From a virus, in UHGV virus genome UHGV-0360526: DNA of 43,707 bases; one strand, given 5' to 3'. Positions within the stretch are counted from its first letter, which is position 1. Each line of letters begins with the position of its first letter. Made by a program: the position numbers and the translations under genes. Of this stretch, positions 4,098 to 43,665 are shown piece after piece. The notes under the pieces were generated by a model that did not search any database, was not told where the DNA came from, and worked only from the letters and a program-made list of their open reading frames with translations.

Positions 4098-4135
4098 CCC
4101 TCTCTCCGTTTGGAGAGAGGGAGTATTTATTTTTA
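4098..4135 (+). terminator. rho-independent terminator
   Basis: Stem ccctctctcc-gttt-ggagagaggg followed by tatttatttttacg. Confidence 0.75.
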
Positions 4136-4190
4136 CGCTTTCGTGTCTAATTATGCACACGTAAACAAAATTAATTGAGGAACAGCTTAA

Positions 4191-4526
4191 ATGTGGTTAA
4201 GTGCGATTCACCGTGATTTACCAAAACAAGAAATGGTATTTACTGTTGGCGAGCCAGCAACTGTAGTGGGTGTTGCTAAGTTCGAAAGGGTAGAAGAAGG
4301 CCAATTCGTCGTAGTGGACGACAACGAAAATGAATTCATGTTGTTCCACCCTGAGGTCGATACCTCTGAAATTTGTGAGGGTTCTCTTTTGTTGTCCTGG
4401 CAAGATCCTGAAACCGGCGCATGGAAGTGGCGTGTCGCTAAACCGACGCTTGAAACAGAATCTGCATACGTGACTGAACACGTATACGTGTTTGGGGAAA
4501 CTTATGTCGAACCAAAACCACACTAA
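4191..4526 (+). CDS. hypothetical protein
   Basis: 111-aa ORF; RBS gaggaa upstream of ATG. Confidence 0.5.
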   Translation: MWLSAIHRDLPKQEMVFTVGEPATVVGVAKFERVEEGQFVVVDDNENEFMLFHPEVDTSEICEGSLLLSWQDPETGAWKWRVAKPTLETESAYVTEHVYVFGETYVEPKPH

Positions 4527-4812
4527 TACCGACGAAACGAATTTACAGCGCTTGCAACGGGCACTAACTGCACCGCTAGGTGGCGAGATTCACGAACGTT
4601 GGATAATTGCGAGGGTGGTAGAAATTGACTATTCTCAGGATCAGTTACTGTTAAACAACTGCTCGTCGAACGTACCTTTCACGCTACCACGCGCCGTATT
4701 CCGTCTTACGCCCAACGTTGATGAAATACTGACTATTGACAGGAAACTTCTATCGATAGAGCTTCAGCATTTCCCGCTACCTGGTAAGTCGGTTAATATT
4801 GCGCTGTCCTAA
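4504..4812 (+). CDS. hypothetical protein (start uncertain, 4492 or 4504)
   Basis: ORF 4492-4812 overlaps upstream gene; internal ATG at 4504 reduces overlap. Confidence 0.4.
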   Translation: MSNQNHTNTDETNLQRLQRALTAPLGGEIHERWIIARVVEIDYSQDQLLLNNCSSNVPFTLPRAVFRLTPNVDEILTIDRKLLSIELQHFPLPGKSVNIALS

Positions 4813-16080: not shown

Positions 16081-18015
16081 ATGATGTTGGTGCGCGATAT
16101 TAAAGATTACACCGAACTAACAGCATACGCGTTAAATTCGTTGTTAACACTTGACAAACCAGAAATATTCGACGAATCCGTCACGATGACGGTAGACCAA
16201 GAAACGAACTATGATTACGTTGGTCAAGTTACTGGTCGTGTTTCTGTGGCTAGTCCCACTGAATATAAAATTGCGATGTATACCTATACAACGGGAGAGT
16301 ACGCGCAAGGTGAATCACCATTAAACGAATCAGGTGAGTTTAATTTTAAACGAACATGGCCGGGGACAAAACAATTTCGTTTAATTAGAATTGCTGATGG
16401 CAAATGGATTTCTACGTTAGAGTTCCCATTGTGCATACGTAGTTACCATATGCCAGAAAACGCGGACCCTGAAACGATCAGGATTATGAAAGATCGTTGT
16501 TATACTTACGATCAGGCTGTTGCTACTCTTGCATTAATGGCCTACGGTCATGAAAAGGTAGAACAGTTTGTAAAAGGTCTTTTAGCGCTGGTCAATGAAG
16601 ACGGTGGTGTTAAATTCTACGTAAACCGACTTTCGGCTAAATCTTCGCGAAATTATTACCGTATGGGCAACGTCGCGTGGGTACTTTACGCTTTAGCTTT
16701 TTATCTTGAAAAATTTCCTGCCGGAAATCTAGCGGCACAGGTTCATGAAAAATTAACACTTTCCTTAACCTGGCTGGAAACTTATAAGGTAACGCAGGAG
16801 ACAGATCGCCGCAAAGGTTTATATCTTGGTGGAAAGGGTCGTTTTGTTACTACCGAATCAGGCGAACGTGTTTTTGAAGAAGACTACGTTGCACCTTTTG
16901 CGGCTTTAGAACATCAGGTAGATATTTGGTTCCTGTTCGAATTACTAGGGCGCGTCGGTTTTGATGCATACCAACAAAAAGCAGCGGACTTCGGTAATAG
17001 AATAGTAGAAGCTTTTTGGATGGAAGACGAAGGACGTTTTCGTCAGGGTGTGAGAGAAACAGAAGATGATAACGCAGCTGCGTTAGATCAGTCCAGTTGG
17101 GGTGGGCTATTTGCGGCCAAATTTAAACCAGAGTACGCCGAACGTTGTCACGCTTTTATGGAGAAATTTCGTTCGGAAACCTCTGAGTGTCGTGGCTACA
17201 CACCATACAAAACCGAGTTTGGTTACCCTACTGCTAAAGAAGGGGTGTGGGTTGAAGGTGCCGCCGGTGTTGCGTTATTCGAACGTCAGTTAGGAAATGA
17301 TAAACGTGCTGTTGAGATCATTAACGACTTAGATGTTCTTTTATCAGAATACGGTTATCGTGATTCTTGCGATGATCCTACCTACGATACGCTGCCGCCG
17401 TGGTGGTCAACCACAAACACTGCATGGGTGCTTTTAGTCTGTAAGCCAAGTAATTTTTGGCTTGTAGATAAGCCTCCTTTAACGGAGAGATATAATCCGC
17501 AGAATAAATTTTTACCAGATATTTCATTAAACTCTTTAAATCTTGTAATTTCGTTAGTGAATCACGATTTAAAAACAGATTACACGGAGTCTGATGTTGA
17601 AATCAGCAAGATTTCACTTAGCACGGAAGAAAATCGTGACACAACAGCGATAATGGAAATAAAACGTCCTAATAAACGGTCGTTACAGATCTATTACAAC
17701 CGTTTAACCGCAGCGCGGTGGTTAAACCAGCAACCTATTCTGGTAAAGGTCACCGGTAACGGTTTTACTACACGCGATCTGATCGACGGAATTAACGCGG
17801 CTTGTGGTTGTAATTTACAACCCGACGATCTTACTGACGACACATTTACCGTAGGGAAAGACGCTGTAACGTTACAGGTTTCACCCAACTCGTTAGGTTA
17901 TAAAGGTCAATTCTCCGTTCTGGTTTTCGGTAACGATGAAGAAGCCGCTGTGGTAAAAGACAACGATTTAATCGTTACCGCAGATAACCGTGTCTTAACA
18001 TTCGGAGGTCACTAA
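16081..18015 (+). CDS. putative (alpha/alpha)6-barrel glycoside-hydrolase-like virion protein with C-terminal fibre-docking-like domain
   Basis: 644 aa; central region has repeated helix-pair signatures (YDQAVATLALMAYG, NVAWVLYALAFY, LDQSSWGGL, TNTAWVLLV) typical of six-hairpin glycosidases; C-terminus homologous to ORF 10121-10681; enzyme assignment is tentative. Confidence 0.35.
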   Translation: MMLVRDIKDYTELTAYALNSLLTLDKPEIFDESVTMTVDQETNYDYVGQVTGRVSVASPTEYKIAMYTYTTGEYAQGESPLNESGEFNFKRTWPGTKQFRLIRIADGKWISTLEFPLCIRSYHMPENADPETIRIMKDRCYTYDQAVATLALMAYGHEKVEQFVKGLLALVNEDGGVKFYVNRLSAKSSRNYYRMGNVAWVLYALAFYLEKFPAGNLAAQVHEKLTLSLTWLETYKVTQETDRRKGLYLGGKGRFVTTESGERVFEEDYVAPFAALEHQVDIWFLFELLGRVGFDAYQQKAADFGNRIVEAFWMEDEGRFRQGVRETEDDNAAALDQSSWGGLFAAKFKPEYAERCHAFMEKFRSETSECRGYTPYKTEFGYPTAKEGVWVEGAAGVALFERQLGNDKRAVEIINDLDVLLSEYGYRDSCDDPTYDTLPPWWSTTNTAWVLLVCKPSNFWLVDKPPLTERYNPQNKFLPDISLNSLNLVISLVNHDLKTDYTESDVEISKISLSTEENRDTTAIMEIKRPNKRSLQIYYNRLTAARWLNQQPILVKVTGNGFTTRDLIDGINAACGCNLQPDDLTDDTFTVGKDAVTLQVSPNSLGYKGQFSVLVFGNDEEAAVVKDNDLIVTADNRVLTFGGH

Positions 18016-31628: not shown

Positions 31629-31641
31629 GAAAAAATAAAAA

Positions 31642-31682
31642 TACCTACCTCCTATTACGGGAGGTAGGTATACTTTTTTTTC
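31642..31682. terminator. bidirectional terminator between convergent genes
   Basis: Stem tacctacctcc-tattacg-ggaggtaggta with A-run upstream and T-run downstream; between plus-strand stop 31628 and minus-strand stop 31691. Confidence 0.8.
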
Positions 31683-31690
31683 GCTGTCGA

Positions 31691-32362
31691 TTACAGCCCT
31701 TGCTCTAACGCAAACGCTTTTATCGAATCGTAATCACGTGCTTCAGCCCAAGCCCTGACTTCTCTTTTCTGCTCAGACATTGCGTGGTGTAGTCTTTGAT
31801 CGCGCTCAACGATTGCTGCCAGCAACGTCTTGCACTGTTCTAACGTAAACGGTTCAATACGGGTGTTGTTAGCCGTTAACCAATACGCTGGCGCAGTTTC
31901 TGACTGAATATAACGACTCAGTGCTACCTGTGACTTCTCATCTGCCTGGAAAGTGAAATCACCTACCTGAATCTCAGCATAGCGTGCATCCTGATAACGG
32001 AATTCCAAAGCGCTTAGAATTTTCTGAACATCGGTAAAGATGTACCGCACCGTGGAACGTAAACCTGTACGAATTTCTTCCAGGTCAATCCCCAACGTGT
32101 CGTTAACAAAGTCTTTCGCTTTCTGTAGCGTAAACCGTGCTTCGATTTCAGACATGTCGTAGTTACGCATTTGTTCCAATGCTTCGCGATCAGACATCCC
32201 ATCAATCAACTTATAGTGCAGTAACGCACAAAACCCTGTACGGCCGTGATCTTCACTACCGATTTTCTCCATGTAGTTACCATGACGGTCAATCGGTAAA
32301 TCATGCGCAAAATAACGGCGACGGATTTCTTCTTTCGTTAAGCCTTCACCAGTAGCAGACAT
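31691..32362 (-). CDS. hypothetical protein (last gene of minus-strand operon)
   Basis: 223-aa ORF overlapping the start of the upstream gene. Confidence 0.55.
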   Translation of the reverse strand: MSATGEGLTKEEIRRRYFAHDLPIDRHGNYMEKIGSEDHGRTGFCALLHYKLIDGMSDREALEQMRNYDMSEIEARFTLQKAKDFVNDTLGIDLEEIRTGLRSTVRYIFTDVQKILSALEFRYQDARYAEIQVGDFTFQADEKSQVALSRYIQSETAPAYWLTANNTRIEPFTLEQCKTLLAAIVERDQRLHHAMSEQKREVRAWAEARDYDSIKAFALEQGL

Positions 32363-32910
32363 TCATCGTCTCCTTTAATCAACCCTAATTCGATTAACAA
32401 TTCAAAATCGATATGACGGAATCTTGTGTCGAAGTCCGATTCCCAATCGATACGGATACCCTGGCATTCTTCTGGCGTTAGCTCAGGAAAAATCACGGTA
32501 TTAAATTTCTCTCGCTCATCGTAAAACCCATCAATCGGTGAGTTCGGGTTACGTGTTGCGAAGATAGTAATGCCGGGGAAGGACAATGCCAACACAGTGA
32601 TAGATTCTGCGCTGGGTTCGCTTAAAGAGCGGCGTAGAAACGCAATTTTGTGACGTGGGAAATCCAATACCCGTTCTTCAAACCCTGGGTTACGTTTTTC
32701 AATTTCCGCGACCGACAGGTCAGTAAGTTCGGTGCAGTACATTGGGATGATTACAGTCACGCCGTGACGAATCAGTAAGCGTTTTACGTCATCGGTAAAA
32801 TCTTCACCGTTAATCACCACATAACAACCGAATAGCTTACTGTTTTCCAGAAACTTATCCAGAAGTCGAATTCTACGCTTCGTAATATTGTTGATCAGAA
32901 TTGGTTTCAT
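32338..32910 (-). CDS. hypothetical protein
   Basis: 190-aa ORF; start overlaps the 3' end of the radical SAM gene. Confidence 0.5.
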   Translation of the reverse strand: MKPILINNITKRRIRLLDKFLENSKLFGCYVVINGEDFTDDVKRLLIRHGVTVIIPMYCTELTDLSVAEIEKRNPGFEERVLDFPRHKIAFLRRSLSEPSAESITVLALSFPGITIFATRNPNSPIDGFYDEREKFNTVIFPELTPEECQGIRIDWESDFDTRFRHIDFELLIELGLIKGDDECLLLVKA

Positions 32911-34195
32911 CTTTGGCTTCTCTTAATAATTTTTCCTTTTGGGCACGTTCACGAACACAGCGTGGGCAATAACACATGCTCGTGTCGTGGAACGCTTTTG
33001 CTGACGTCGTACCCATCTTCTGTTTCCAGTATTCCGCCACCATCAGTTTCGCTGTCGTCCAGCCACACTGACGACGTTCAGCGTGATACGCTTTACGGTC
33101 TTCTAACGTTCCTTCCCCGTTCTCGTAAGAAGCCGCCGCACAGCTACCACAAGCGTGTTTCATCGGACAACCTAAACAGGTCTCTGGGTAGTTGGTATAT
33201 TGCGTTTGAATCTCTTCTAACAATTTACCGTTGTCCAGACTGACGAATTCCCGACCTACCAACTCAAACACCGCAGAACGCGACGTTACCGTTGACATAA
33301 AGCGGTTACAGCCAAAGATCTTACGGTCAAATCCTAAGCACGTCATGTGGGTTAACGTCCCGCAGAACGGACGTAAACGTTCTGGGTTCAACCGTACAGT
33401 GTCATTATACAGTAACTGGTCACGCCAGTTCGGTTCCCAAATCGTATCGAAATCCAACCCTTCTGGAATGATGTGCGATAAGATATTACGTGGATTGGTG
33501 TGTAATCCTTTTTCAACCCAATAATCTATCACATCCATCATCTGTAAAGCGATTGATGTCGCCATGCTACGCGGCATAACGTCTTCGAAGGTTACGTTCC
33601 CAGAAATTGTCCCACCGCCAGTAATGTCAATTAATGACTTCATCCCCGCAGCATAGAACGGCAGTGTTTCTAACGTAAAGGTCGCTTTTACGCCGAGTTC
33701 TGCAATACCAACCTCTTTTAAGTAATTATAGCCACGTACTGCGGCTTCGTAAGAACCCTGACGCGTCGTTGTGAAGATACGATAGCGGTCATGGGATTCA
33801 GGTAAACCATCAATCGAAACCCCAACCGAAAGTTTGTCTTTCCAACGTTCTACAATCTCACGGTTCAACGGACGATCTAACAGCGTTCCGTTCGTGGAGA
33901 TACTAAACATAAACGGTCGGTTGTGTTCTTTACACAACTGCTCAGCGGTTTCAAACGCAGCCAGCAGCAGTTTAGGCTGCATGAACGGTTCACCACCGAT
34001 AATGTCGATAATAACTTCGACATTCGGTTCGTTTTTATCACGTTCAAAACAGGCGTGTAAGAAATCAACAATGTCAGCCGCTTTGTTGTTACGTGGGTAC
34101 TTACGTTCGTAGCAATATTCGCAGTCCAGGTTACACGAAAGGTTGGTTACGATCTGATACGTTAACTGCTTAGGGAATTCATTTACTTGACTCAT
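32873..34195 (-). CDS. radical SAM enzyme with C-terminal SPASM-like domain (peptide-maturase-like)
   Basis: 440 aa; CNLDCEYC (CxxxCxxC) near N-terminus, GGEP SAM-binding motif, C-terminal Cys clusters CGTLTHMTCLGFDRKIFGCNRF and CLGCPMKHACGSCAAAS. Confidence 0.8.
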   Translation of the reverse strand: MSQVNEFPKQLTYQIVTNLSCNLDCEYCYERKYPRNNKAADIVDFLHACFERDKNEPNVEVIIDIIGGEPFMQPKLLLAAFETAEQLCKEHNRPFMFSISTNGTLLDRPLNREIVERWKDKLSVGVSIDGLPESHDRYRIFTTTRQGSYEAAVRGYNYLKEVGIAELGVKATFTLETLPFYAAGMKSLIDITGGGTISGNVTFEDVMPRSMATSIALQMMDVIDYWVEKGLHTNPRNILSHIIPEGLDFDTIWEPNWRDQLLYNDTVRLNPERLRPFCGTLTHMTCLGFDRKIFGCNRFMSTVTSRSAVFELVGREFVSLDNGKLLEEIQTQYTNYPETCLGCPMKHACGSCAAASYENGEGTLEDRKAYHAERRQCGWTTAKLMVAEYWKQKMGTTSAKAFHDTSMCYCPRCVRERAQKEKLLREAKDETNSDQQYYEA

Positions 34196-35102
34196 TTGCC
34201 GCCCCTCTATTACGTCCTGCCATCACTACGCGACGAATATATTCGTACGCCTCTACACCGATAGAGAAGGCCAGTTGGTTACATCCCGATTCCAGAACGT
34301 TAGGTGCATTCTGGAGTTGGTGCTCACCACCGTCTGCATTAATCCAAAGACTTTCGCTGCAAACGTTACACCCTTCTTCAAACACTTTACTTACTGTAAA
34401 GCCGCATTCACGACCATTTACTACATTCAGTCGTTCAATGTTGTCCTGAACCTGATAGTAGCCGTAAATAAAGTTCATGACGTGGTCAGGCGATAAAGGT
34501 TTTGGCATTTTCGCGTCTAAGAGTAACGTCATTGCACGGAAACCGTAATGGTAAATCGCGCTGTGCAGCTGAATAATATCTTCGTGCCAGCGTTTGTCCC
34601 CTAAACGGTCCCGTGTCAGGACACCCCAAGTCTGGACATTATCCAGCTCGTAGATCGTTTCCAGTGCTTCGTAACAGCCTTCGTCAATAAAGCGCATAAA
34701 CGGGCGCTCAGACGACTTAAACCCATCGATGCTAACGTAGACATTGTCAAACTGTTTTAGCAACGGGAGATGCGATTTACGCATCTTTAAGCCATTGGTA
34801 TACAACTGGTGTTTGAGTTCTGGACGAATCACTTTTAATTCGTCAACAAACGCCTCAATTTTACGGGTTGCCAGTAATGGCTCACCACCCGTCCACTGAA
34901 TTTCGGTAATGGTTGGATTAGCTTCCAGCGCTTCCAAAATTCGCTCACGTTGAAACTCTCGCGGAGAATCTTCACGATTCATGTAATAGGCTCCACCGCA
35001 GAAGCTACAATCCAGGTTACACTTGGACGTAGCGACTACGGACAATACGGTGGGTTTATCGTATAAACGATTCGATAACCTTGGTTCTGCATTGGTTGTC
35101 AT
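34179..35102 (-). CDS. radical SAM enzyme (second, shorter paralog-like)
   Basis: 307 aa; CNLDCSFC (CxxxCxxC), GGEPLL motif, C-terminal Cys residues ECG..GCNVCSES..GCNQ; 17-nt overlap with downstream rSAM gene. Confidence 0.75.
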   Translation of the reverse strand: MTTNAEPRLSNRLYDKPTVLSVVATSKCNLDCSFCGGAYYMNREDSPREFQRERILEALEANPTITEIQWTGGEPLLATRKIEAFVDELKVIRPELKHQLYTNGLKMRKSHLPLLKQFDNVYVSIDGFKSSERPFMRFIDEGCYEALETIYELDNVQTWGVLTRDRLGDKRWHEDIIQLHSAIYHYGFRAMTLLLDAKMPKPLSPDHVMNFIYGYYQVQDNIERLNVVNGRECGFTVSKVFEEGCNVCSESLWINADGGEHQLQNAPNVLESGCNQLAFSIGVEAYEYIRRVVMAGRNRGAANESSK

Positions 35103-35123
35103 TGCAGGTGACTCCGGTCGTTT

Positions 35124-36023
35124 TTAAATATAATCAATGGCGAACAAAGGATCGTCGTCTACGTTAGCACCAGGGGTTAACAAGAATGGAGAGTTATACG
35201 CTTCCAAAATACGATTAAGGTCTTTATAACGGACATTTAAACGTTCTAAATCCGCTAACGTTACGTTACGGTCCAACACCGCCGACACTGCTGCTTTCTC
35301 TTCGTCAGTTAACGTGACTTTCGTCATTAAGAAACTAACGAGTTTTGCCAGATCCGCTTCTGTTGACGGATGCTCGCCAATACGTGTTTGAATCAAATGC
35401 TGCATCCAAGGCTTACGGATGCGTTTTGTGATTTCGTGTTCATCCGTCAGGGCAACCCACACGGAACGTTCACGGTCCCACACGAACTTATAGCTGTACG
35501 CCATTAAATCCGCTAAGCAATTAATCCCTAACGCTTCGTACCCTTCAATTTCGATATACGATTCCGTATCGAAATAGTTCTTCGTTTCTGGTGTTACCAG
35601 AGTAAAGAAATACGGGAACGAGCCTAAGTAATCTGGCGACCACCAACGACGGGCAACCGGTTTTGCACCCATTTCTTCAAATGGGGTAAAGAACAATTCC
35701 ATATCTACGGAGTTATTCAAAATCCCGTCACTAAAGAAATATTTACCCGCAACCAGTTTACCACGCAACTCGGAGTCACCGGTAAAAACCACTACACTTT
35801 CTGCCGTCAGATCACGAATCTTAAACGTATTTTCTACACGATAGTTTTTACGATCGGTAAAGAAACGTCCGCGCACTTTAGGCCATTCGCCCGGCAACTG
35901 TGTCAGCAGACGAACTTCATCTGCTAAATGTGCACGTACGGAATCAGGGGAAGAAATGTGAAGTGGATGATTGAAAATTGTTTTGTACGCTAAATGTAAA
36001 TCATTCTTCATCGATTGCTCCAA
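35124..36023 (-). CDS. hypothetical protein between Cys-rich peptide genes and radical SAM genes
   Basis: 299-aa ORF with RBS ggag; no recognisable motif. Confidence 0.5.
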   Translation of the reverse strand: MEQSMKNDLHLAYKTIFNHPLHISSPDSVRAHLADEVRLLTQLPGEWPKVRGRFFTDRKNYRVENTFKIRDLTAESVVVFTGDSELRGKLVAGKYFFSDGILNNSVDMELFFTPFEEMGAKPVARRWWSPDYLGSFPYFFTLVTPETKNYFDTESYIEIEGYEALGINCLADLMAYSYKFVWDRERSVWVALTDEHEITKRIRKPWMQHLIQTRIGEHPSTEADLAKLVSFLMTKVTLTDEEKAAVSAVLDRNVTLADLERLNVRYKDLNRILEAYNSPFLLTPGANVDDDPLFAIDYI

Positions 36024-36160
36024 TTATTTCGCGGTCAAACGGACATTCAGGGTATAGAAACCACCGCACCATTACCTACCGGTAACTTGAAACTCAGTAG
36101 TAAACCCGTACGATTAACTCGGTTATTGCGTAATAGACATACTACCACTGGAGGGCTTAG

Positions 36161-36367
36161 TTACCTTCCCCCCGCACCTTTACTACAGCTACCACTGCAC
36201 GACCAGCTACATCCGCCGTTACAGTTATAATGGCTTAAAGGTAAACCGGCAAGGTTATTGGTTGAAGACACGGTGCCCTGGTTTGCAATATAGTTGTTTG
36301 CGTTAGCGGTCGTAATATACCCTTCCGCTGTTACTAACCGATCACGAAGGTTCTTAAGGCTAATCAC
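36161..36367 (-). CDS. CxxxC-repeat Cys-rich peptide 3 (short core)
   Basis: Listed ORF 36161-36433 overlaps peptide 2 out of frame; GTG at 36367 preceded by gggagg gives VISLKNLRDRL..., matching the leaders of peptides 1 and 2; core CNGGCSWSCSGSCSKGAGGR. Confidence 0.5.
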   Translation of the reverse strand: MISLKNLRDRLVTAEGYITTANANNYIANQGTVSSTNNLAGLPLSHYNCNGGCSWSCSGSCSKGAGGR

Positions 36368-36369
36368 AA

Positions 36370-36768
36370 TTACCTCCCAGAACAGCCACCGGAGCAAGCA
36401 CCAGAGCAGCCTGCAGAACAGTTTCCTACACACGAGTTAGAACAACTCCCCGTACAGCTTCCTGAACAGCCACCAGAACAGGTATTCGAACATCCACTAC
36501 AGCCTGCACTACAACCTGATACACAGTTTGCAGAACAGGAAGAACCACAGCCGCCTGATGCGTTCCCTGTACAACCACCAGAACAGCTCGAACAGGTCCA
36601 GCTACAGCTCCCACCACAGTCATAGTGGTTGCGAGCTTGCCCACCGAATAAGTCTGCGTTGTTCGTCGCTTTCCCACGAATATAGTTTTGTACTGCACCC
36701 GTATTCTTCAATGCAGTGTTGTCAATGTTATTTAGCCGCGCTTGTAGCGCAGGTAATCCAATTGCCAT
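36370..36768 (-). CDS. CxxxC-repeat Cys-rich peptide 2 (putative radical SAM substrate)
   Basis: 132 aa; ~50-aa leader MAIGLPALQARL... then ~80-aa core of about 20 Cys, mostly in C-x-x-x register with Ser/Gly between. Confidence 0.6.
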   Translation of the reverse strand: MAIGLPALQARLNNIDNTALKNTGAVQNYIRGKATNNADLFGGQARNHYDCGGSCSWTCSSCSGGCTGNASGGCGSSCSANCVSGCSAGCSGCSNTCSGGCSGSCTGSCSNSCVGNCSAGCSGACSGGCSGR

Positions 36769-36778
36769 TTTTCACCTC

Positions 36779-37177
36779 TTAGGTTGGGCCAGAACAGCCA
36801 CCGGAGCAAGCACCAGAACAACCCGTAGAACAACGGCCCGAGCAAGCACCTCCACAGGTCCCACTGCAACCTGAGCAGCCGCCGGAACACGTTGAACTAC
36901 ATCCAGTACACTGGTTACCACACGCGGATGAACAGCTACCTACACACACCGACGTACAGGTGCCCGAACAACTCGTACAGCCATGCGTACAACCGTTTGA
37001 GCACGTCCAGCTACAGCTTCCCCCGCAGTCTAACCGACTTGGCGTCCAACCCGAAAAAGTGTCGGCGGCATTATGTGCTTTCGACGCAACTTGCGGATCA
37101 ACACGTGGGCCAGTTGCCATTTGGTTCTCTACGTTGGTGATTCGGTCACGTACATTTTTAACACTGATCGCCATCAC
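36779..37177 (-). CDS. CxxxC-repeat Cys-rich peptide 1 (putative radical SAM substrate)
   Basis: 132 aa; leader MMAISVKNVRDRI...SRLDCGG then core with 21 Cys (CSWTCSNGCTHGC...CSGACSGGCSG); RBS aagga; ATG at 37174 also possible. Confidence 0.6.
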   Translation of the reverse strand: MMAISVKNVRDRITNVENQMATGPRVDPQVASKAHNAADTFSGWTPSRLDCGGSCSWTCSNGCTHGCTSCSGTCTSVCVGSCSSACGNQCTGCSSTCSGGCSGCSGTCGGACSGRCSTGCSGACSGGCSGPT

Positions 37178-37184
37178 GTATCCT

Positions 37185-37231
37185 TAAAATAAAAAAGAAT
37201 GGAGGACTACGCCCATAAGCATAGTTCCTCC
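37185..37231 (-). terminator. rho-independent terminator between fibre gene and Cys-rich peptide genes
   Basis: On minus strand: stem ggaggaact-atgcttatgggcgt-agtcctcc followed by attcttttttatttt, ending ~10 nt before the RBS of peptide 1. Confidence 0.65.
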
Positions 37232-37241
37232 TGTAATAAAG

Positions 37242-38441
37242 TTATTTCGTACCCGCTTCTGCCTGAACGTCATCACGGGACGTCAAGTTAGCGTTAACGT
37301 GCACTGGAGCCTGAACCACACCGCCGTATTTCTTGTGGAGATAACCTGTGTGCGGGTTATCCGCCGCAATATGGTTTTGTAGGTTCTGATTCGCCTGACT
37401 GATTGCGTTCGTGTTATTCGCAACCTGTTGTTTAAGCGCATCCAGGTTTTGTTGCAGATTATCAATTTTCTGATCGGACTCATTACCCCGTTGTTCTAAC
37501 GCAGCAATGCGCTGAATCGCTTGGTTGAGTTTGGTGTTCAGATCGTTGATATTTTTCTGTAACTGTAACACTAGCGAATTTAGGTTCGCCAATGCCAATG
37601 CCATCTTCTGGTAGTTTTGGGCAACGATGTTAAGTTGGTCGTTCCACGCTTCCAAAGATTTGACAACAGCATCAATACGTTTTCCTAACGCTTCGTCTGC
37701 TTTCTTCAACGCATTAATATCAGTAATGGTTGCATCGATGGCAGATTGTACGTCACGGATAAGTGCACGGATCTCCGTTTCTGTTAACCCGTTAACCTGA
37801 TGAATATCCAGATGGTGGACATTACCCGTGGCGTTAATGTGCGCGTTCAGCGCGTCCAGGAAATCGTTTTTCAGGCTTTCGAGAATCGCTTTGATGTTCT
37901 CAAGCTGTACAGCATCACCCGCCGTTATCGCATCTTTGATGCCAGCGAGCACTGTAATGATATATTCGAAGCCGTAAATATCGCCGACGTCTTTATACGT
38001 TGGTGCCGAAGGAAACGTGTCCGGCACATTTCGCAAGTCTTTAAAGCCAACAGTTCGATTATCGAGATTCAGCTCGGCAATCGCCTGTTCTATCGCGGGC
38101 ACGTTTGCCGACTGCGGACCCCCGACTACTTGCGCTGATACCGTGATATCGGTCGGAATCGCGGTGTTCGTTACAACAACCGCCATTACCACTTCCCGGT
38201 TCTTCGTCAATTTCTCGTAAGCCGGGTGTGCAAAAATCAACTCGTAGTCCGTTCCGCGCTCATACGTCGCGTCGGGTCGATTGGCAACCCGCAAGCGGAA
38301 CGTATCAGCATAAAACGGTCCGTCAGGAAAAGCAAACGCACGGTTAACTTTACCTGTACCTAACGTAATCTGACGCTCCACGGCGTTAGAGGTTAGGCTT
38401 CCCGTTAAATCTAAAGGGTATTGGTATACAATGGAGGCCAT
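37242..38441 (-). CDS. tail-fibre-like protein (N-terminal attachment domain plus long coiled coil)
   Basis: Listed ORF to 38549; ATG at 38441 with RBS aaggagag gives MASIVYQYPLDL; N-terminus shares the P-x-G-P-F-Y motif region with the 1727-aa protein; C-terminal half is heptad-rich. Confidence 0.6.
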   Translation of the reverse strand: MASIVYQYPLDLTGSLTSNAVERQITLGTGKVNRAFAFPDGPFYADTFRLRVANRPDATYERGTDYELIFAHPAYEKLTKNREVVMAVVVTNTAIPTDITVSAQVVGGPQSANVPAIEQAIAELNLDNRTVGFKDLRNVPDTFPSAPTYKDVGDIYGFEYIITVLAGIKDAITAGDAVQLENIKAILESLKNDFLDALNAHINATGNVHHLDIHQVNGLTETEIRALIRDVQSAIDATITDINALKKADEALGKRIDAVVKSLEAWNDQLNIVAQNYQKMALALANLNSLVLQLQKNINDLNTKLNQAIQRIAALEQRGNESDQKIDNLQQNLDALKQQVANNTNAISQANQNLQNHIAADNPHTGYLHKKYGGVVQAPVHVNANLTSRDDVQAEAGTK

Positions 38442-38481
38442 GGCCACTCTCCTTAATCCGAGACGTCCTTGTCTCGTGGCG

Positions 38482-41400
38482 TTAAGATGTAAACATAAGA
38501 TTGAACTGGAGCTTATCGATATCGCGGGTTTGTGCTGGGTTAACCGCATCGTACGTGGTTGCCACGTAGACCGTTAATGTCCCGTCAGCAAACGAGGTTT
38601 TCACCGGTGGCGTAGTCCCTGTTTGTCCGTCGGTTACAATGACGACAGGTTGAGCCGGGAGTTGATGGAACTGACCCTTAACCGCTTTATACACCAAACC
38701 AGATTGTGCTGCTAACTCCGTGTCGGTATACACGATAAACGGTGTGTCGATATCTGTCTGTTTAATGACAGTGTTCGACTCAACGTCAATCAACTGAACA
38801 GCACCGAACTTCGTACGGTAGCTATCGTATTCATTTTTTGGAATGACAAACGTAGCATGTATACGGACTTCTTCGGCTGGCTTAAATCCGGCGTGTTCTT
38901 TTTCCAGATAACTGTTAGCGGTTAACGTTACTGTCTGTTCAGCCATCGTACCGCCAGACTGGTTTAACCCGTAACGAACTTGGGTTATACCTGTCGGAGC
39001 CGCAAGCCTGATTTTTAGTCTACGATTAGCGGTGCCGGGATTACCAGGCACTTTAACACGCAGACTCAGCGCCAGATATGCATTCGCACCGGTAGTCGGT
39101 TTCGTATACGCGCCCAACCACTTCATGTTCGCAGTTGCCGCTTGACTGTTCTCAGAAGCAGTAGCCGCAGCAACGTTTGCAGCAACCGCTTTCTGCCAGA
39201 ACTGGTCAGCGCAGTTTTCATACGCTACTCTACCGATACTTTTATAACCTGCGTAGGTTTCCTGTATCGGTAGCTTGGGTCGTGTTGTAACCCCGTTCAA
39301 CGCATTCCATTTCTGACCATCGACATACCCCGCACCATTACTCGCAGATGCCGTAGGGGCTTTCAGTGGTTGGTTAACTAAGGTTTGAAGTGGACCCGTT
39401 TTTCGATCGTACGCCGCTGCAACGTCGTGCTGATCTCTAACGGCAGCATGTTCTTCTAATTCACGAACCCTGCCTAGTCGTTTCACTTTATCGATGTTGA
39501 TAGCAACTATGCGCTTTTTATCGGTTGTAACTGTACCAACAAATAATCGCGAAGTCGTATCCGGCAGCTTTTCCAGACCGATCTGATATTGAGCCTTCGA
39601 ACCTACAAGAGCAGCATGAACATAGAACGTCTGGTTAGCATGGTTTTCTGGGAATTCGTTGCTTAAATCCACCGACCACGTCGGTAATGTATAGCTATTA
39701 CTACCGAAATCTAACCTGACCTCTTCCGTCAAGTATAGAATCCAACCTTCCGCGGTTTCCACGCCTGCGATAATAACTGCCTGCCCCGCTGTTGAGAATG
39801 TGGTATCATTAACGAACTCTTCGACTGTGTATGCGTTACCTGAACAGAAAACGCGGTCAGCTTTAGAGAAAATTCGTGCCATCTTGTCCCAATTACCCGC
39901 ACCCATGTAACAACCAGATTCTGGGTTGTGGGCAGGAGCCATCTGACGCAACTGTGACTTACCGGGAACTCGCGTCCAACCCGACCCAGGGTTAAAGGTA
40001 TACTTCGCAGCGTAACCCAAAGCATTTAGGTCCCCGATATTCCGTATTGTCAGCGTATAAGGTAGCCATAGACCGAAGTTTACACCGTCGGCAGAAGCAA
40101 AAATTGGCTGGCCTACACGTCGCGTTTTATTACCCGCTTCTTCCCTCAGAGACTGATAACTTAAGCCGTAATCAAGGTCTAAGAACCAATCTACCAGCTT
40201 AAAGGTTGCAGAATTAAAACGTAGATAACCGTTTTCTTTAGTCGGACTCACCATGAAGTAATAGATGTCGAGGACTCGACGTCCGTTACTCAAGGTTTTC
40301 ATGCATGAGACTTGTAATAAGTCGAACTCACAAACAGTGTTAATGCCTAGCAACCAGAGTGCAAACAACGCGTTGCCGCTTTGGTGTGCTGCGCTGATGC
40401 GCTCGTTCGCGTAACCGTTTGCTTGGCCAGATGGTGCACCATCGACAATCATCCTAATCATTTTCTGGCGATCCGCTTCCTCTAACGTCAGCCGTTCTGA
40501 TGACAGGGCAAAGTTACCGTAGATGTTCCGATATGGAAAGGTTTCCGCTTTCGTCAAATACCAACCATTTAACTGACCGTGACGCTCCTCAGGAGTCATA
40601 CATGCAGCCATACAGCTTAACTGTTCGTAAAGGGTTGCATCAACTTCTCGACGGTTGTTGTTCGGGCCATAACCGCTATATCCGGGAACGTCATAAGGTT
40701 TACTTGGGTCAACTTCTACTTCGATCGTATAGCGGTTGCGCGGATTGGATAACCATACTTTGTTTGAGCCACCGATACCAACAGGATGAGAAAGACCGAT
40801 GGTATAGATAGAACCACGACCTTTATCCCAAGTAAATGTTGCTTCGCCTGAGGTATTGTTTGGGTTATCATAACGCAGATAATCAAAAAACTCTTTGCCT
40901 TGCGTACTTTTAATAGTAACATTCGGCATCTGGTCCGCATCGTTAATCTGCCAGCAGGAAAGCATCATTCCTGAGACATTAGGTTTAGCATACGTCGCAA
41001 AACAACGATTGTTTGCTTGGCCGCCACCCCACTTACGACTGGTTTCTACAGTTGAGCCATCCGCGTACGATAGTCTGGTAGCATCAACCTTAATGGGGAA
41101 ACGTTCGGCACCCTCTAACGTAACTCTGCCCGTTAACGTATCGATTGTGAAACTTGTTGACCATTGACGGAAATTAATCGTCGTACCGTCGGCAGCCGCA
41201 AACCACACGCTGGGTACATGGTTCACACGAATCACGCTGTCGCGTACCGCACAAGCATGGTTACATTCTGGACCGTGAACAAAGTTGTGACCGATTGTCC
41301 ATTTAGCCCGTGCCTCTGGCGGGTAATACGTAAAGAACTGACCAGTCTGCGACTCTTCGGTCTTCTGGCCAATTCTTAGGCAGAGGTTATCTCCGAATTG

Positions 41401-43665
41401 CCCCATTTCTCCGGTTAGGGTTACACGTTCAAATTCTAACTCAGTATTGGTAGTCAAATCGGCTTTACGTAAACGCCATACCGCCACAGCATAAGCAGAG
41501 TTATTTACCGTGGAACGAAGAAGATAAACGTGGTCGTCAACTAACACAACATCGTCGGCTTCTGGCCAAGGATTCCAGGTTTGTTCCACAGTACCGCTGG
41601 GGTTGCCATTACGGTACTTAGGCATTGTAACACGACATACCACCGTGTGTTTACTGTGGTCCATCGAACCATTGAACAACACCAAATAACGGTTATTGTC
41701 AGAACCCAGACAAATAATCGCTTCCTGGCCACCGATCAATATCGCTTTTAAGGTCACCCCAGGGTATTTACTCATCCCAACAGGATGGTATTTCACCGAA
41801 GTTTGCTGAGGGTTCACAAACACATTCGACGTATTGATATCAGCATAGCCGTAGTAAATCGCCTCTGTACCAGGTACGCCATTAGAAGCATTACGTAACG
41901 AATAAACTTTACCTTGTTGATATCCTACAACACCTTTCTGATAGGACTGGTTCTTTGTAAAACCTGAATAATTACCGAGCGCCGGAATGGGTAAGAAGTT
42001 TTTGTTACCGAACTTCGCCCCACCGACAGTCCACGCAGGTAAGATGGTATTCAGTTTATCAGAAACTTTCTTGATCTCTTTTGCGAACAACCACCCTTGA
42101 CGCGAAGTGACAGCTTTATCGTTCGTGGTATCAATCGCATCCCACAACTGTAAGATACCATCCACAGTCGCACTGCCAATCGGGACATTATCCAAATCGG
42201 CGGTAGTGTGCGTGTGCTCCTTCACACTTTTATTTTTCAGCACATTCGCTAACGCTTTTGTTACCGGTTTAGCGATCGGCATGGTGTTTTCCATCTTATC
42301 GATACCGAAATCGGTTTTCGTTAAGGTTAACACCATTTTATCGCCTGTCTTAACAAACCCTTTACCGTTAACCGTGTAGTCATCGTCAACGTACAAGTCT
42401 AACCGGTCTTTTAATTCGGTCACCGCCTTTTGGGAAATAGCAGTGCCTAGTGCTACGGAGGTTGCGATATTCGTAATCGAAAACACCCCATAAACCGACT
42501 CGGTTGCTGTGGGAATATTCGCGTTCAACGTTAGCGGATTAGACTGCTTCGCTGTACCGTACGGTTTTACGGTGTCTGATGGTTTGAAATAGGCGTTCGC
42601 TTCAAGTAACGTTACAGACGTCAGGTACATGTTCACCATTTCTGGTGTAACCAAATACACAGAGTTGTAAACCGGCGCTAATACATCTTGTTCTGTCCCA
42701 GAGTGTACCCAAAGCGTATTCAGCCCCGCACTAAATTCAACCGCCAAACCCGATTCGTTGTTGTCCTGGTCTGCTTTAATCACCAACGGTTGCGGTGAGG
42801 TAATTAACCACTTATCACCACGGATACTGATGATGTGTCCGCCTGCGGTTTTAAACGTCAGTTCGTTACCGTTCGTGCTGCCCCATCGACCGTAAACAGT
42901 GCCGAGGGCTTCACCCATTAACTGATCAACGTCTGATTGCTCAATACCCGCCGAACCCATCAGCGTAGCCAATTCGTCAATCGTCAGTCCAAACGCTTTT
43001 GTAGCGTCGACAGCACGTCCCAAAACCGGAAGGGCACCAACATCAGTGGTCGTATACTGGTGTGCGTTAGGATTAAGGTGGTGTTGGTATAACTCCTCGT
43101 CGAAAACCTTTTTACCGTTCTCGTAAATCAGGTTAGTGACTTCGGTAAACGCTGCATCTAACTCTGTTGAACGTTGAACGATTTTCTTACGGATGTCGTT
43201 TAACGCTTTAACAACCTCATCCCTCAGAATAGCTTCTTCTAAGTTAGCAGGAGGATCGATGGGTTGAATAACTGGCGCATACGCCATTAACTCTGACCAG
43301 TCCACGTTACGTGGGTCTTTCAGGTCAGTACGAACTAAGAACTTTCCGATTTCAGATTGTGGTACACGATACTGGCGTGCTACCCCTAAAATCTCATATT
43401 CGATTTCTGTTGCGGTCAGCAACATGAACCCGCCATAAATCTGATCTTGTTCAGCTTCTGCGAGTTCTTTAAAGTAATAGCCTAAATAGTAGTCCAACCC
43501 CTCAATCAGAGTACGACGTCCGTTAGGCGCGGTATCGTCGGCTACTGTGAGTTTTAATCCGATACGATAAAAAGGTCCTTCAGGCGGAATGACCACATTA
43601 AATCGGTTAGGGTACGTCGCTGTGCTTAACGTACCGTTAAACTGCGCCGCGTCTTCTCTCGGCAT
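38482..43665 (-). CDS. giant virion protein (1727 aa), putative tailspike / receptor-binding protein
   Basis: Single uninterrupted ORF; N-terminal region (NRFNVVIPPEGPFYRIGLKLTV) homologous to N-terminus of the adjacent fibre-like protein; RBS aggagt; remainder unassigned. Confidence 0.6.
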   Translation of the reverse strand: MPREDAAQFNGTLSTATYPNRFNVVIPPEGPFYRIGLKLTVADDTAPNGRRTLIEGLDYYLGYYFKELAEAEQDQIYGGFMLLTATEIEYEILGVARQYRVPQSEIGKFLVRTDLKDPRNVDWSELMAYAPVIQPIDPPANLEEAILRDEVVKALNDIRKKIVQRSTELDAAFTEVTNLIYENGKKVFDEELYQHHLNPNAHQYTTTDVGALPVLGRAVDATKAFGLTIDELATLMGSAGIEQSDVDQLMGEALGTVYGRWGSTNGNELTFKTAGGHIISIRGDKWLITSPQPLVIKADQDNNESGLAVEFSAGLNTLWVHSGTEQDVLAPVYNSVYLVTPEMVNMYLTSVTLLEANAYFKPSDTVKPYGTAKQSNPLTLNANIPTATESVYGVFSITNIATSVALGTAISQKAVTELKDRLDLYVDDDYTVNGKGFVKTGDKMVLTLTKTDFGIDKMENTMPIAKPVTKALANVLKNKSVKEHTHTTADLDNVPIGSATVDGILQLWDAIDTTNDKAVTSRQGWLFAKEIKKVSDKLNTILPAWTVGGAKFGNKNFLPIPALGNYSGFTKNQSYQKGVVGYQQGKVYSLRNASNGVPGTEAIYYGYADINTSNVFVNPQQTSVKYHPVGMSKYPGVTLKAILIGGQEAIICLGSDNNRYLVLFNGSMDHSKHTVVCRVTMPKYRNGNPSGTVEQTWNPWPEADDVVLVDDHVYLLRSTVNNSAYAVAVWRLRKADLTTNTELEFERVTLTGEMGQFGDNLCLRIGQKTEESQTGQFFTYYPPEARAKWTIGHNFVHGPECNHACAVRDSVIRVNHVPSVWFAAADGTTINFRQWSTSFTIDTLTGRVTLEGAERFPIKVDATRLSYADGSTVETSRKWGGGQANNRCFATYAKPNVSGMMLSCWQINDADQMPNVTIKSTQGKEFFDYLRYDNPNNTSGEATFTWDKGRGSIYTIGLSHPVGIGGSNKVWLSNPRNRYTIEVEVDPSKPYDVPGYSGYGPNNNRREVDATLYEQLSCMAACMTPEERHGQLNGWYLTKAETFPYRNIYGNFALSSERLTLEEADRQKMIRMIVDGAPSGQANGYANERISAAHQSGNALFALWLLGINTVCEFDLLQVSCMKTLSNGRRVLDIYYFMVSPTKENGYLRFNSATFKLVDWFLDLDYGLSYQSLREEAGNKTRRVGQPIFASADGVNFGLWLPYTLTIRNIGDLNALGYAAKYTFNPGSGWTRVPGKSQLRQMAPAHNPESGCYMGAGNWDKMARIFSKADRVFCSGNAYTVEEFVNDTTFSTAGQAVIIAGVETAEGWILYLTEEVRLDFGSNSYTLPTWSVDLSNEFPENHANQTFYVHAALVGSKAQYQIGLEKLPDTTSRLFVGTVTTDKKRIVAINIDKVKRLGRVRELEEHAAVRDQHDVAAAYDRKTGPLQTLVNQPLKAPTASASNGAGYVDGQKWNALNGVTTRPKLPIQETYAGYKSIGRVAYENCADQFWQKAVAANVAAATASENSQAATANMKWLGAYTKPTTGANAYLALSLRVKVPGNPGTANRRLKIRLAAPTGITQVRYGLNQSGGTMAEQTVTLTANSYLEKEHAGFKPAEEVRIHATFVIPKNEYDSYRTKFGAVQLIDVESNTVIKQTDIDTPFIVYTDTELAAQSGLVYKAVKGQFHQLPAQPVVIVTDGQTGTTPPVKTSFADGTLTVYVATTYDAVNPAQTRDIDKLQFNLMFTS

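Follow-up and report, generated by a model that had tools for sequence, protein, structure and literature searches.

The window, the whole 43,707-nt stretch of viral DNA analysed here (UHGV-0360526), is that of an SPN3US-like jumbo phage, a giant phage of the Salmonella/Erwinia type, as judged from its sequence. In this window, three small cysteine-repeat genes (g1, g2 and g3) are followed by genes for an accessory protein and two radical-SAM enzymes (rSAM2 and rSAM1). The cassette is flanked by gp167/gp168-like tail proteins and by a DUF4376 protein, all encoded on one strand (Table 1). SPN3US gp168 is a phiKZ gp131-like protein of the baseplate periphery and fibre (PMC5105663). In the supplement of the SPN3US paper, gp163 and gp164 appear only in the table of genes common to several phages. 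The hairpin upstream of g1 has a z-score of -5.07, and none of 200 shuffled sequences was equally stable. No significant RNA structure was found in the spacer between g3 and the accessory gene.

Table 1. Genes and other features of the cassette region, from upstream to downstream on the minus strand.
Feature	Coordinates	Strand	Evidence
1727-aa protein, SPN3US gp168-like	38482..43665	-	SPN3US annotation, PMC5105663
Virion structural protein, SPN3US gp167-like, coiled coil, directly upstream of g1	37242..38444	-	phrog_2163, 8e-103; SPN3US annotation
Terminator-like hairpin and U-run between gp167-like gene and g1	37186..37231	-	dG -21.4 kcal/mol
g1, CXXX-repeat protein, 131 aa, 21 Cys	36779..37174	-	ORF and Cys count, phrog_6085, substitution bias
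g2, CXXX-repeat paralogue, 132 aa, 20 Cys	36370..36768	-	ORF, phrog_6085, invariant Cys columns
Gene-conversion patch, 3′ end of g2	36377..36405	-	Identity to g1 36789-36817; divergence from L006
g3, short paralogue, 68 aa, 4 Cys, GTG start	36161..36367	-	ORF, phrog_6085, invariant Cys columns
Accessory protein, 295 aa, phrog_8030, SPN3US gp165 homologue	35124..36011	-
rSAM2, small radical-SAM enzyme, 307 aa, SPN3US gp164 homologue	34179..35102	-	CX3CX2C motif
rSAM1, SPASM-type radical-SAM enzyme, 440 aa, SPN3US gp163 homologue, presumed CXXX maturase	32873..34195	-	PapB, TIGR04115 and CteB matches
190-aa protein, phrog_7988, overlaps the end of rSAM1	32338..32910	-
223-aa DUF4376 protein, last gene of the run	31691..32362	-	Weak matches to tail-fibre PHROG families
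Bidirectional terminator-like hairpin closing the minus-strand gene run	31641..31671

Three cysteine-repeat genes

Each of the three genes encodes a conserved N-terminal part and a Cys-rich C-terminal part of differing length, and here the open reading frames and the alignment agree with the sequence-only reading that preceded this work. A ribosome-binding site lies upstream of each gene. g1 starts at the ATG at 37174, which has an AAGGA 6 nt ahead of it; a GTG at 37177 stands too near this ribosome-binding site to serve as the start. The GGAGG that precedes the GTG start of g3 lies within the 3′ end of g2.

The common N-terminal region is 48–50 aa long (49 aa in g1), and the first Cys is residue 50, 51 and 49 in g1, g2 and g3, respectively. 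The motifs SRLDCGG, NHYDCGG and SHYNCNGG, previously described as the ends of leaders, are all present. The three proteins share an invariant C-x-G-x-C-S-W junction (DCGGSCSW in g1), followed by C-[S/T]-G-x repeats. Cys residues are spaced by 4 in 17 of the 20 intervals of g1 and in 16 of the 19 of g2, whose tract lacks one Cys (GNASGG). Earlier Cys counts of 21, 20 and 5 hold for g1 and g2; g3 has 4.

The similarity among the N-terminal parts is no artefact of composition. They align with invariant residues, and phrog_6085 is matched by g1 (E = 1.5e-40), g2 (E = 2.5e-39) and g3 (E = 2.3e-24). A Pfam search gave no match for g1–g3 or for the 295-aa accessory protein. Each N-terminal part has a short amphipathic, heptad-patterned helix and then an N-x-x-D-x-[LF]-x-G...[HY]-Y segment, which resembles tail fibres. 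AlphaFold modelling of g2 with 36 sequences gave a pLDDT of 44.5 and no confident fold, so that only the helical propensity of residues 5–34 is readable. Two g3-type proteins, P0213 and P0216, carry C-terminal extensions without counterpart in the window.

The other open reading frames called on both strands are artefacts, as had been proposed, and the substitutions relative to the orthologues fit the Cys frame only. When g1 was compared with its counterpart in contig L010, 11, 5 and 73 differences fell at codon positions 1, 2 and 3, respectively; 67 codon changes were synonymous and 10 non-synonymous. All Cys columns are invariant: 21 in g1 (9 sequences aligned), 20 in g2 (8 sequences) and 4 in g3 (7 sequences). 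SPN3US gp166, which overlies g2, and Parshik gp178 are GenBank calls in wrong frames over Cys-repeat genes. Because the g1 and g3 homologues are unannotated and gp166 is in the wrong frame, the published SPN3US proteomes were unable to detect homologues of g1–g3. In many deposited genomes such genes have no call, or one in the wrong frame, which makes virion proteomes blind to them.

An initial megablast search of the phage collection with this region gave no match, and a protein-level search was required. SPN3US-like and Erwinia-phage-like contigs have orthologues of g1–g3 in the same order, and the accessory proteins of these contigs are only 54–75% identical to that of the window. The trio with identical Cys counts (21/20/4) is kept in 12 related phage contigs, and g3 is its most conserved member. 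The nearly identical 3′ ends of g1 and g2 had been ascribed to recent duplication or gene conversion. Ordered orthologues in diverged contigs, with the very same 21, 20 and 4 Cys, speak against recent duplication, whereas gene conversion is supported. A run of 29 nt is identical between the 3′ ends of g1 and g2, and outside this run the two proteins are only ∼53% identical. When g2 was compared with L006, 6 of the 22 differences were bunched in 36385–36403. On this comparison of sequences, the identical 3′ ends represent a short tract of gene conversion that is peculiar to this lineage. The notion of a variable core is correct in part: core length differs between paralogues, but within each orthologue set it is fixed rather than hypervariable.

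Two radical-SAM enzymes and an accessory protein

rSAM1 combines the CX3CX2C motif with a C-terminal Cys-rich motif of the CX2CX5CX3C auxiliary-cluster type, here CX2CX5CX2C, as expected of a SPASM enzyme; the Pfam SPASM model gave no match to it at E ≤ 0.01. Its Cys sets C21/C25/C28, C278/C286/C296, C340-X2-C343-X5-C349-X2-C352 and C377 are invariant in 4 sequences that are 52–93% identical. The PapB model NF047865 matched rSAM1 along its full length with E = 1.2e-33 and 116.8 bits, far below its cutoff of 340 bits. TIGR04115 matched over model positions 3–345 of 359 with E = 6.5e-33 and 114.7 bits, below its cutoff of 350 bits. Judged by these profiles, rSAM1 is a distant relative of TIGR04115 and no equivalog. 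The best solved relative of rSAM1 is the thioether synthase CteB (PDB 5wgg, E = 5.8e-14). A pattern-based scan of a bacterial genome collection for rSAM1 found only generic radical-SAM genes, 27–28% identical, with no CXXX tract beside them.

The rSAM2 of the window and its paralogue in L010, an extra copy that is 63% identical, share four conserved C-terminal Cys residues. A homologue of rSAM2 is also present in L023. For the 295-aa accessory protein no similar fold was found, and its fold is apparently new. A homologue of this protein occurs in 4 of the 6 other cassette types whose DNA was read, and it was confirmed for L023 and L024.

Since g1–g3 lie directly upstream of two radical-SAM enzymes, one of them of the SPASM peptide-maturase type, their products are very probably substrates of post-translational modification. 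The accessory gene and both radical-SAM genes adjoin g1–g3, in support of a substrate-and-maturase relation.

Related cassettes and fused modules in other phages

The cassette recurs across very different phages. In L005, a distant phage with another genomic neighbourhood, the CXXX genes, accessory gene, rSAM2 and rSAM1 stand in the same order, and a phrog_7988 gene follows rSAM1 there too. The called neighbours of the L005 cassette included no recognisable tail gene. Seven distant loci with DNA (L023, L024, L026, L027, L028, L029 and L030) carry rSAM1 homologues that are 34–40% identical. A CXXX-bearing ORF lies directly upstream at all seven, and a second radical-SAM gene is paired with the first at at least six. 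In L024, a DUF4376 gene is again close downstream of the radical-SAM pair. The cassette is within tail-gene runs in 5 of 8 contexts, and it is carried by jumbo myoviruses, by prophages whose tail protein is of the lambda-J type, and by contigs that have T7-type terminase or tail-fibre genes.

At three of the seven loci (L023, L026 and L028), the junction motif and CXXX tract form the C-terminus of a larger fibre-like protein. Collagen repeats are present in the L026 protein, for which phrog_5073 (tail fiber) gave a match at 6.5e-52. HxH and YYTETE repeats occur in the L023 protein, which also matches the Pfam phage-tail-repeat family weakly; the same repeats were seen in L028, in sequence only. 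L027 and L029 each have a CXXX ORF that encodes a free-standing peptide of ∼75 aa whose N-terminus is short, and the L027 peptide scored 26 bits against TIGR04114 (cutoff 20).

A profile search of 1.84 billion representative proteins gave 39 matches, of which ∼10 are proteins of 185–313 aa with the module at the C-terminus. Tail-fibre PHROG families matched the N-terminal parts of 5 of the 7 such proteins scanned. Two matches, P0227 and P0228, were discarded as spurious. Overall, the module forms the C-terminal end of ∼200–430-aa proteins in other phages, several of them with tail-fibre features. In fibre-like proteins, it is the C-terminal part that phrog_6085 matches, and several of these proteins have tail-fibre PHROG or collagen matches at their N-terminal ends; in the window, the cassette has tail and baseplate genes as neighbours.

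Possible functions of the cassette

We favour, with a probability of about 0.55, the reading that g1–g3 are small fibre-type structural proteins (mini-fibres or fibre tips) that are cross-linked by radical-SAM enzymes in the cytoplasm and keep their N-terminal part. The chemistry that we infer is as follows. rSAM1 would act on the tract again and again and convert Cys thiols to carbon-sulfur (thioether-type) cross-links, as PapB and CteB do. rSAM2 may add a second modification or serve some of the sites, and the accessory protein may present or recognise the conserved N-terminal region with its junction. This region would stay uncleaved. In the virion, the cross-linked proteins would join the gp167-/gp168-like proteins in the baseplate or fibre apparatus and form a rigid distal element that is insensitive to proteases and redox. 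Such covalent stabilisation would take place in the cytoplasm, which is reducing and does not allow disulfides. In favour of this reading are the constrained coding frame, the full-length matches of rSAM1 to peptide maturases, the linkage of the cassette in very different phages, the fusion of the module to tail-fibre-like proteins and the place of the cassette among tail genes of the window. Against it stand the low scores of rSAM1 relative to the curated cutoffs, the L005 cassette without a recognisable tail gene among its called neighbours, the free peptides of L027 and L029 and the low-confidence model of g2.

More tentatively, and on balance short of an even chance, the four-part cassette (CXXX module, accessory protein and two radical-SAM enzymes) may install a cytoplasmic thioether ladder in the distal end of tail fibres. 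If so, this would be the first virion structural protein matured by radical SAM, and the receptor-binding apparatus would be hardened by a cytoplasmic stand-in for disulfide bonds. It would connect radical-SAM peptide chemistry with the structure of phage tail fibres, so far separate fields, and provide the uncharacterised group of CXXX-repeat maturases with a function and a natural substrate. It would also give a reason for the two radical-SAM genes among the tail genes of SPN3US-type giant phages, and a way for a virus to make covalently stapled extracellular structures inside a reducing cell. A compact, genetically encoded system of repetitive cross-linking might be of use in protein engineering. 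Our literature search found no description of this phage cassette; its matches were unrelated.

A classical RiPP cluster is the strongest alternative, although an unlikely one. Here the 48–50-aa leaders would guide the enzymes and then be cut, and thioether-rich cores freed at lysis would be bioactive (antimicrobial, signalling or metal-binding). The conserved leader, the core and the modifying enzymes adjoining the precursor genes are arranged as in classical RiPPs, and the maturases are SPASM-type relatives of PapB, CteB and the CXXX-repeat maturase. Several precursor paralogues with cores of different length fit as well, as do the free short CXXX peptides of L027 and L029, which resemble ordinary precursors and of which that of L027 exceeds the TIGR04114 cutoff. 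However, tail-fibre-like proteins contain a homologue of the putative leader as an internal segment, with the Cys tract as no more than the C-terminal end of a 270–430-aa protein, and this makes it doubtful that the N-terminal part of g1–g3 is a classical leader cleaved before export. Orthologues do not diversify in core length or Cys number, both of which are fixed, and the location of most cassettes in tail-gene runs also argues against such a cluster. Among the scanned genes of the window (31691–43665), none matched a peptidase or transporter family. Among genes adjoining the cassettes of L005 and L023–L030, no peptidase or transporter Pfam was listed, save an M15 peptidase ∼5 kb downstream in L028. 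That M15 peptidase looks like a lysis gene.

Still less probable is that g1–g3 are Cys-rich proteins that bind metal or iron-sulfur clusters, either metallothionein-like or as metal-stapled fibre needles, in which the Cys stay thiolates and the radical-SAM enzymes act elsewhere or on the junction only. The strict conservation of Cys number and spacing and the HxH repeats of some fused fibres would suit such proteins, and the tip of T4 gp37 consists of metal-stapled trimers with His-Fe sites. On the other hand, the CXXX ORF directly upstream of the SPASM enzyme at every one of the seven distant loci, and of a paired second radical-SAM gene at six or more of them, argues for a substrate-enzyme relation, and the models closest to the enzyme are those of thioether-forming peptide maturases and of the CXXX-repeat maturase. 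Finally, that this is low-complexity DNA with its true genes in other frames or on the opposite strand, as annotated for gp166 and gp178 in two GenBank records and as long open frames in several frames of both strands might suggest, is extremely improbable given the substitution pattern, the invariant Cys columns, the ribosome-binding sites and the HMM matches down to E = 1e-40.

The mini-fibre reading can be compared with known systems. In the TIGR04114/TIGR04115 system (PF27846, tSAM_targ_Cxxx_rpt), targets with a Cys at every fourth residue likewise adjoin a SPASM-type enzyme, and g2 scored 19.4 bits against TIGR04114 (E = 0.0011; cutoff 20), with g1 and g3 not reported. In contrast to that system, the window targets are 68–132 aa long, with a fibre-like N-terminal part of 48–50 aa and a CSW junction. 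The phage cassette also adds a second radical-SAM enzyme and a ∼220–300-aa protein without detectable fold relative, and its setting is that of phage tail-fibre modules. We know of no characterised product of the TIGR04114/TIGR04115 system, and our literature search found no paper naming it.

The PapB/freyrasin ranthipeptide system (NF047865) provides the best-scoring characterised enzyme model for rSAM1. Like PapB, rSAM1 has its CX3CX2C motif right at the start, without an N-terminal recognition domain before it, and its substrate would be a repeated Cys-X3 unit. Freyrasin has six motifs of Cys-X3-Asp. In contrast, g1 and g2 have ∼20 units, and the C-[S/T]-G-[G/S/T] units of g1–g3 contain no acidic residue and lack an Asp acceptor. 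CteB, the enzyme of the SCIFF system (TIGR03974), is also of the SPASM type and links Cys to a carbon atom. Residue 19 of rSAM1 aligns near position 105 of CteB and of the TIGR03974 model, which indicates that rSAM1 is without the ∼100-aa N-terminal substrate-recognition domain. Compared with SCIFF, g1–g3 have nothing like the layout of six Cys in 45 residues.

No radical-SAM-modified fibre tip was found in the searchable literature. Radical-SAM hardening of a virus attachment apparatus looks like an undescribed mechanism rather than an ordinary antibiotic-peptide cluster. Phage fibres with specialised C-terminal tips (collagen-like, HxH-repeat and T7 gp17-type) are a structural parallel, and the module ends proteins of this kind in L023, L026, L028 and P0225–P0241. 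Compared with these fibre tips, the module in jumbo phages is detached as three separate small proteins.

Three Cys-repeat genes and their coding frame

Three genes, g1, g2 and g3, lie in tandem on the minus strand at 36161-37177. The interval between Cys residues is 4 in 17 of 20 cases in g1 and 16 of 19 in g2, and the repeat unit is C-[S/T]-G-[G/S/T]. The three products have in common an invariant junction, C-x-G-x-C-S-W. The g1 and g2 N-termini carry hydrophobic residues at positions 5, 8, 12, 15 and 19, each one less in g3, in a heptad pattern. All three matched phrog_6085, a PHROG family of unknown function (E = 1.5e-40, 2.5e-39 and 2.3e-24 for g1, g2 and g3), and g2 reached 19.4 bits against TIGR04114, the model for CXXX targets, which has a cutoff of 20. 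The sequence-only reading had described the genes correctly, except that it gave g3 5 Cys instead of 4.

Coordinates of the features in the window and in the compared contigs
Feature	Source	Coordinates	Strand	Details
g1	window	36779-37174	-	131 aa; 21 Cys, first at residue 50; ATG start, AAGGA 6 nt upstream
g2	window	36370-36768	-	132 aa; 20 Cys, first at residue 51; ATG start
g3	window	36161-36367	-	68 aa; 4 Cys, first at residue 49; GTG start, GGAGG within g2 end
Accessory protein	window	35124-36011	-	295 aa; phrog_8030
rSAM2	window	34179-35102	-	307 aa; CX3CX2C; four C-terminal Cys conserved in L010 paralogue
rSAM1	window	32873-34195	-	440 aa; CX3CX2C and conserved SPASM-like Cys sets
190-aa protein	window	32338-32910	-	phrog_7988; overlaps rSAM1 gene end
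Terminator-like hairpin, bidirectional	window	31641-31671		perfect hairpin; stem of 12-13 bp, flanked by a T-run at either end
Terminator-like hairpin with U-run	window	37186-37231	-	dG -21.4 kcal/mol, z = -5.1; between gp167-like gene and g1
Large tail-fibre gene	window	10888-15486	+
Large tail-fibre gene	window	16081-18015	+
Extra radical-SAM gene	L010	4392-5303
Extra radical-SAM gene	L011	4393-5304
gp166 (ACQ60_gp100)	SPN3US (L001)	4477-4812		alternative frame over g2 homologue
gp178	Parshik (L002)	4099-4434		opposite strand, over g1 homologue
S-AdoMet lyase domain gene	L024	234-1007
S-AdoMet lyase domain gene	L024	1807-2502

In orthologue comparisons, differences concentrated at third positions of the Cys-frame codons. 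Between g1 and its counterpart in the related contig L010, they numbered 11, 5 and 73 at codon positions 1, 2 and 3; of the codon changes, 67 were synonymous and 10 were not. The Cys columns (21, 20 and 4) were invariant across all orthologues compared, and Cys occurred in no other column. The shared PHROG match and these patterns show that the similarity of g1-g3 is real and that the genes are translated in the Cys frame. The region holds many further ORFs on both strands, which are by-products of the 12-nt periodicity; the third-position bias and invariant Cys columns bear out the earlier view that these small ORFs are artefacts. The GenBank calls gp166 of SPN3US and gp178 of Parshik are periodicity by-products as well, called in the wrong frame or strand. 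In SPN3US, as in many Salmonella phage records, the g1 and g3 homologues are unannotated, and tblastn matches there carry the annotation 'none'.

Protein searches showed collinearity of the region with Salmonella phage SPN3US (Seoulvirus) and with phages of the Erwinia Machinavirus group. The phage collection searched held no near-identical record; the nearest contig was IMGVR_UViG_3300029126_000001 (L006), with 95.8% identity across 12 kb. Twelve IMG/VR contigs carry the trio with its gene order unchanged; their accessory proteins are 54-100% identical to that of the window, and the Cys counts were exactly 21, 20 and 4 in each. L005, a phage contig far more distant, likewise has a pair of long paralogues and a short one (15, 16 and 2 Cys). 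The paralogues are therefore old, and the recent duplication proposed earlier was not borne out. Comparison with related phages, suggested as a way to see core-length variation, showed a fixed Cys number instead.

The alternative proposal, gene conversion, fared better. The window copies of g1 and g2 have a 29-nt identical run in common at their 3′ ends, whereas the longest shared run in L006 is 14 nt. Between the two contigs, 6 of the 22 differences over 36150-37200 fall inside 36385-36403, exactly within the shared patch. This is the mark of a short conversion tract in the window's lineage. L010 and L011 carry another identical patch, of 32 nt, at the junction motif.

Enzymes and neighbouring genes

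Downstream of the trio, on the same strand, come in order the genes for the accessory protein, the small radical-SAM enzyme rSAM2 and the SPASM-type radical-SAM enzyme rSAM1. The top NCBIfam models for rSAM1 were PapB (E = 1.2e-33) and, nearly full length, TIGR04115 (E = 6.5e-33; "radical SAM peptide maturase, CXXX-repeat target family"); both scores are well under the curated cutoffs. The nearest solved protein is the thioether synthase CteB, but rSAM1 is without the ~100-aa N-terminal domain of CteB-type enzymes. Among defined systems, the CXXX-repeat target with its maturase (TIGR04114, TIGR04115, PF27846 of NCBIfam/Pfam) comes closest; compared with it, the window enzyme falls under the curated cutoff, while its target is a borderline case. 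Of characterised relatives, PapB/freyrasin and SCIFF/CteB are the nearest, but the cassette lacks the defining features of both. In L010 and L011, a third radical-SAM gene, a 63%-identical rSAM2 paralogue, is inserted between g1 and g2, and the usual downstream pair is kept.

The 190-aa protein may be a further cassette component, since L005 has a counterpart (25% identical) at the same position in its cassette. A DUF4376 protein with weak tail-fibre matches lies downstream of the enzymes on the same strand. At the bidirectional hairpin, the minus-strand run of tail and cassette genes meets a plus-strand gene. Two genes upstream of g1 have SPN3US homologues: gp167, which is a virion structural protein, and gp168, a tail protein resembling phiKZ gp131, a baseplate-periphery protein (PMC5105663). 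The g1 ribosome-binding site directly follows the other, strong hairpin, which suggests that the dosage of the small genes is controlled separately. With its two large plus-strand tail-fibre genes, the window is rich in fibre genes on both strands. The product of 1532 aa has matches to many tail-fibre PHROG families, and its end is a domain like that of the T4 long-tail-fibre distal subunit.

Tail-fibre association and the role of g1-g3

We compared contigs of rSAM1 homologues with 34-40% identity. A CXXX-bearing ORF lay directly upstream of the radical-SAM genes in all seven loci with DNA, and a second radical-SAM gene was called beside the SPASM enzyme in six. In a prophage-like tail region of a Deferribacter abyssi contig (L023), with a GpJ-type tail protein, the ORF encodes a 302-aa fibre that bears HxH and YYTETEVD repeats and terminates in "KATNADQLGGQAGSYYRCSDCSWTCSS" and 28 Cys. 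L026, with a T7-type terminase, has a 432-aa collagen-like fibre (phrog_5073, 6.5e-52) ending in "KLAGQPSTYYRCSSGCSWTCS...", and a second GpJ-type tail region (L028) has a 273-aa fibre that ends in the same way. In the ~170 kb phage contig L024 and the short phage-like contig L030, the CXXX tail is on proteins whose N-terminal domain differs; in L024 the enzyme pair is followed by a DUF4376 gene. The other two loci encode free, unannotated CXXX peptides of ~75 aa. That of L027 follows a T7-tail-fibre-like gene and passed TIGR04114 (26 bits); that of L029 follows a large unannotated gene, with a T7-type terminase gene downstream. The L023 and L024 genes that separate the CXXX ORF from the enzymes are distantly homologous to the window's accessory protein.

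When 1.84 billion representative proteins were searched exhaustively with a profile of the N-terminal and junction part, only 39 matched. About 10 were proteins of 185-313 aa with the module C-terminal, and 5 of 7 scanned matched tail-fibre, tail-collar-fibre or minor-tail PHROG families in their N-terminal part. Some g3-type proteins, such as P0213 (210 aa) and P0216 (147 aa), have an extra C-terminal domain of ~80-140 aa after a short, internal Cys tract; the window has no counterpart of these domains.

The g1-g3 products are almost certainly substrates of the adjoining radical-SAM enzymes, and to this extent the earlier precursor idea holds; the supposed leader, however, is homologous to a segment within tail-fibre-like proteins, the one just ahead of their Cys tract. 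In no version of the cassette did we detect a peptidase or exporter family. These two points and the undiversified Cys number count against a classical RiPP, cleaved and released, which we consider unlikely. Together with the company of tail-fibre genes in very different phages, they favour g1-g3 as mini-fibre or fibre-tip proteins (probability about 0.55), which would be covalently cross-linked in the cytoplasm and then incorporated into the baseplate or fibre apparatus. We infer the thioether chemistry, the split of labour between rSAM1 and rSAM2, the role of the accessory protein and the virion location. Metal-binding Cys proteins are a less probable reading than a RiPP, and a wrong-frame or non-coding artefact is highly improbable. 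The structural, fibre reading would be of high interest if true; the open-access literature searched held no description of the cassette or of a radical-SAM-modified tail fibre.

Two genes with S-AdoMet lyase domains lie ~3-5 kb upstream of the L024 cassette, and the same is seen in L025. A SAM-destroying function beside SAM-dependent enzymes is an odd arrangement.
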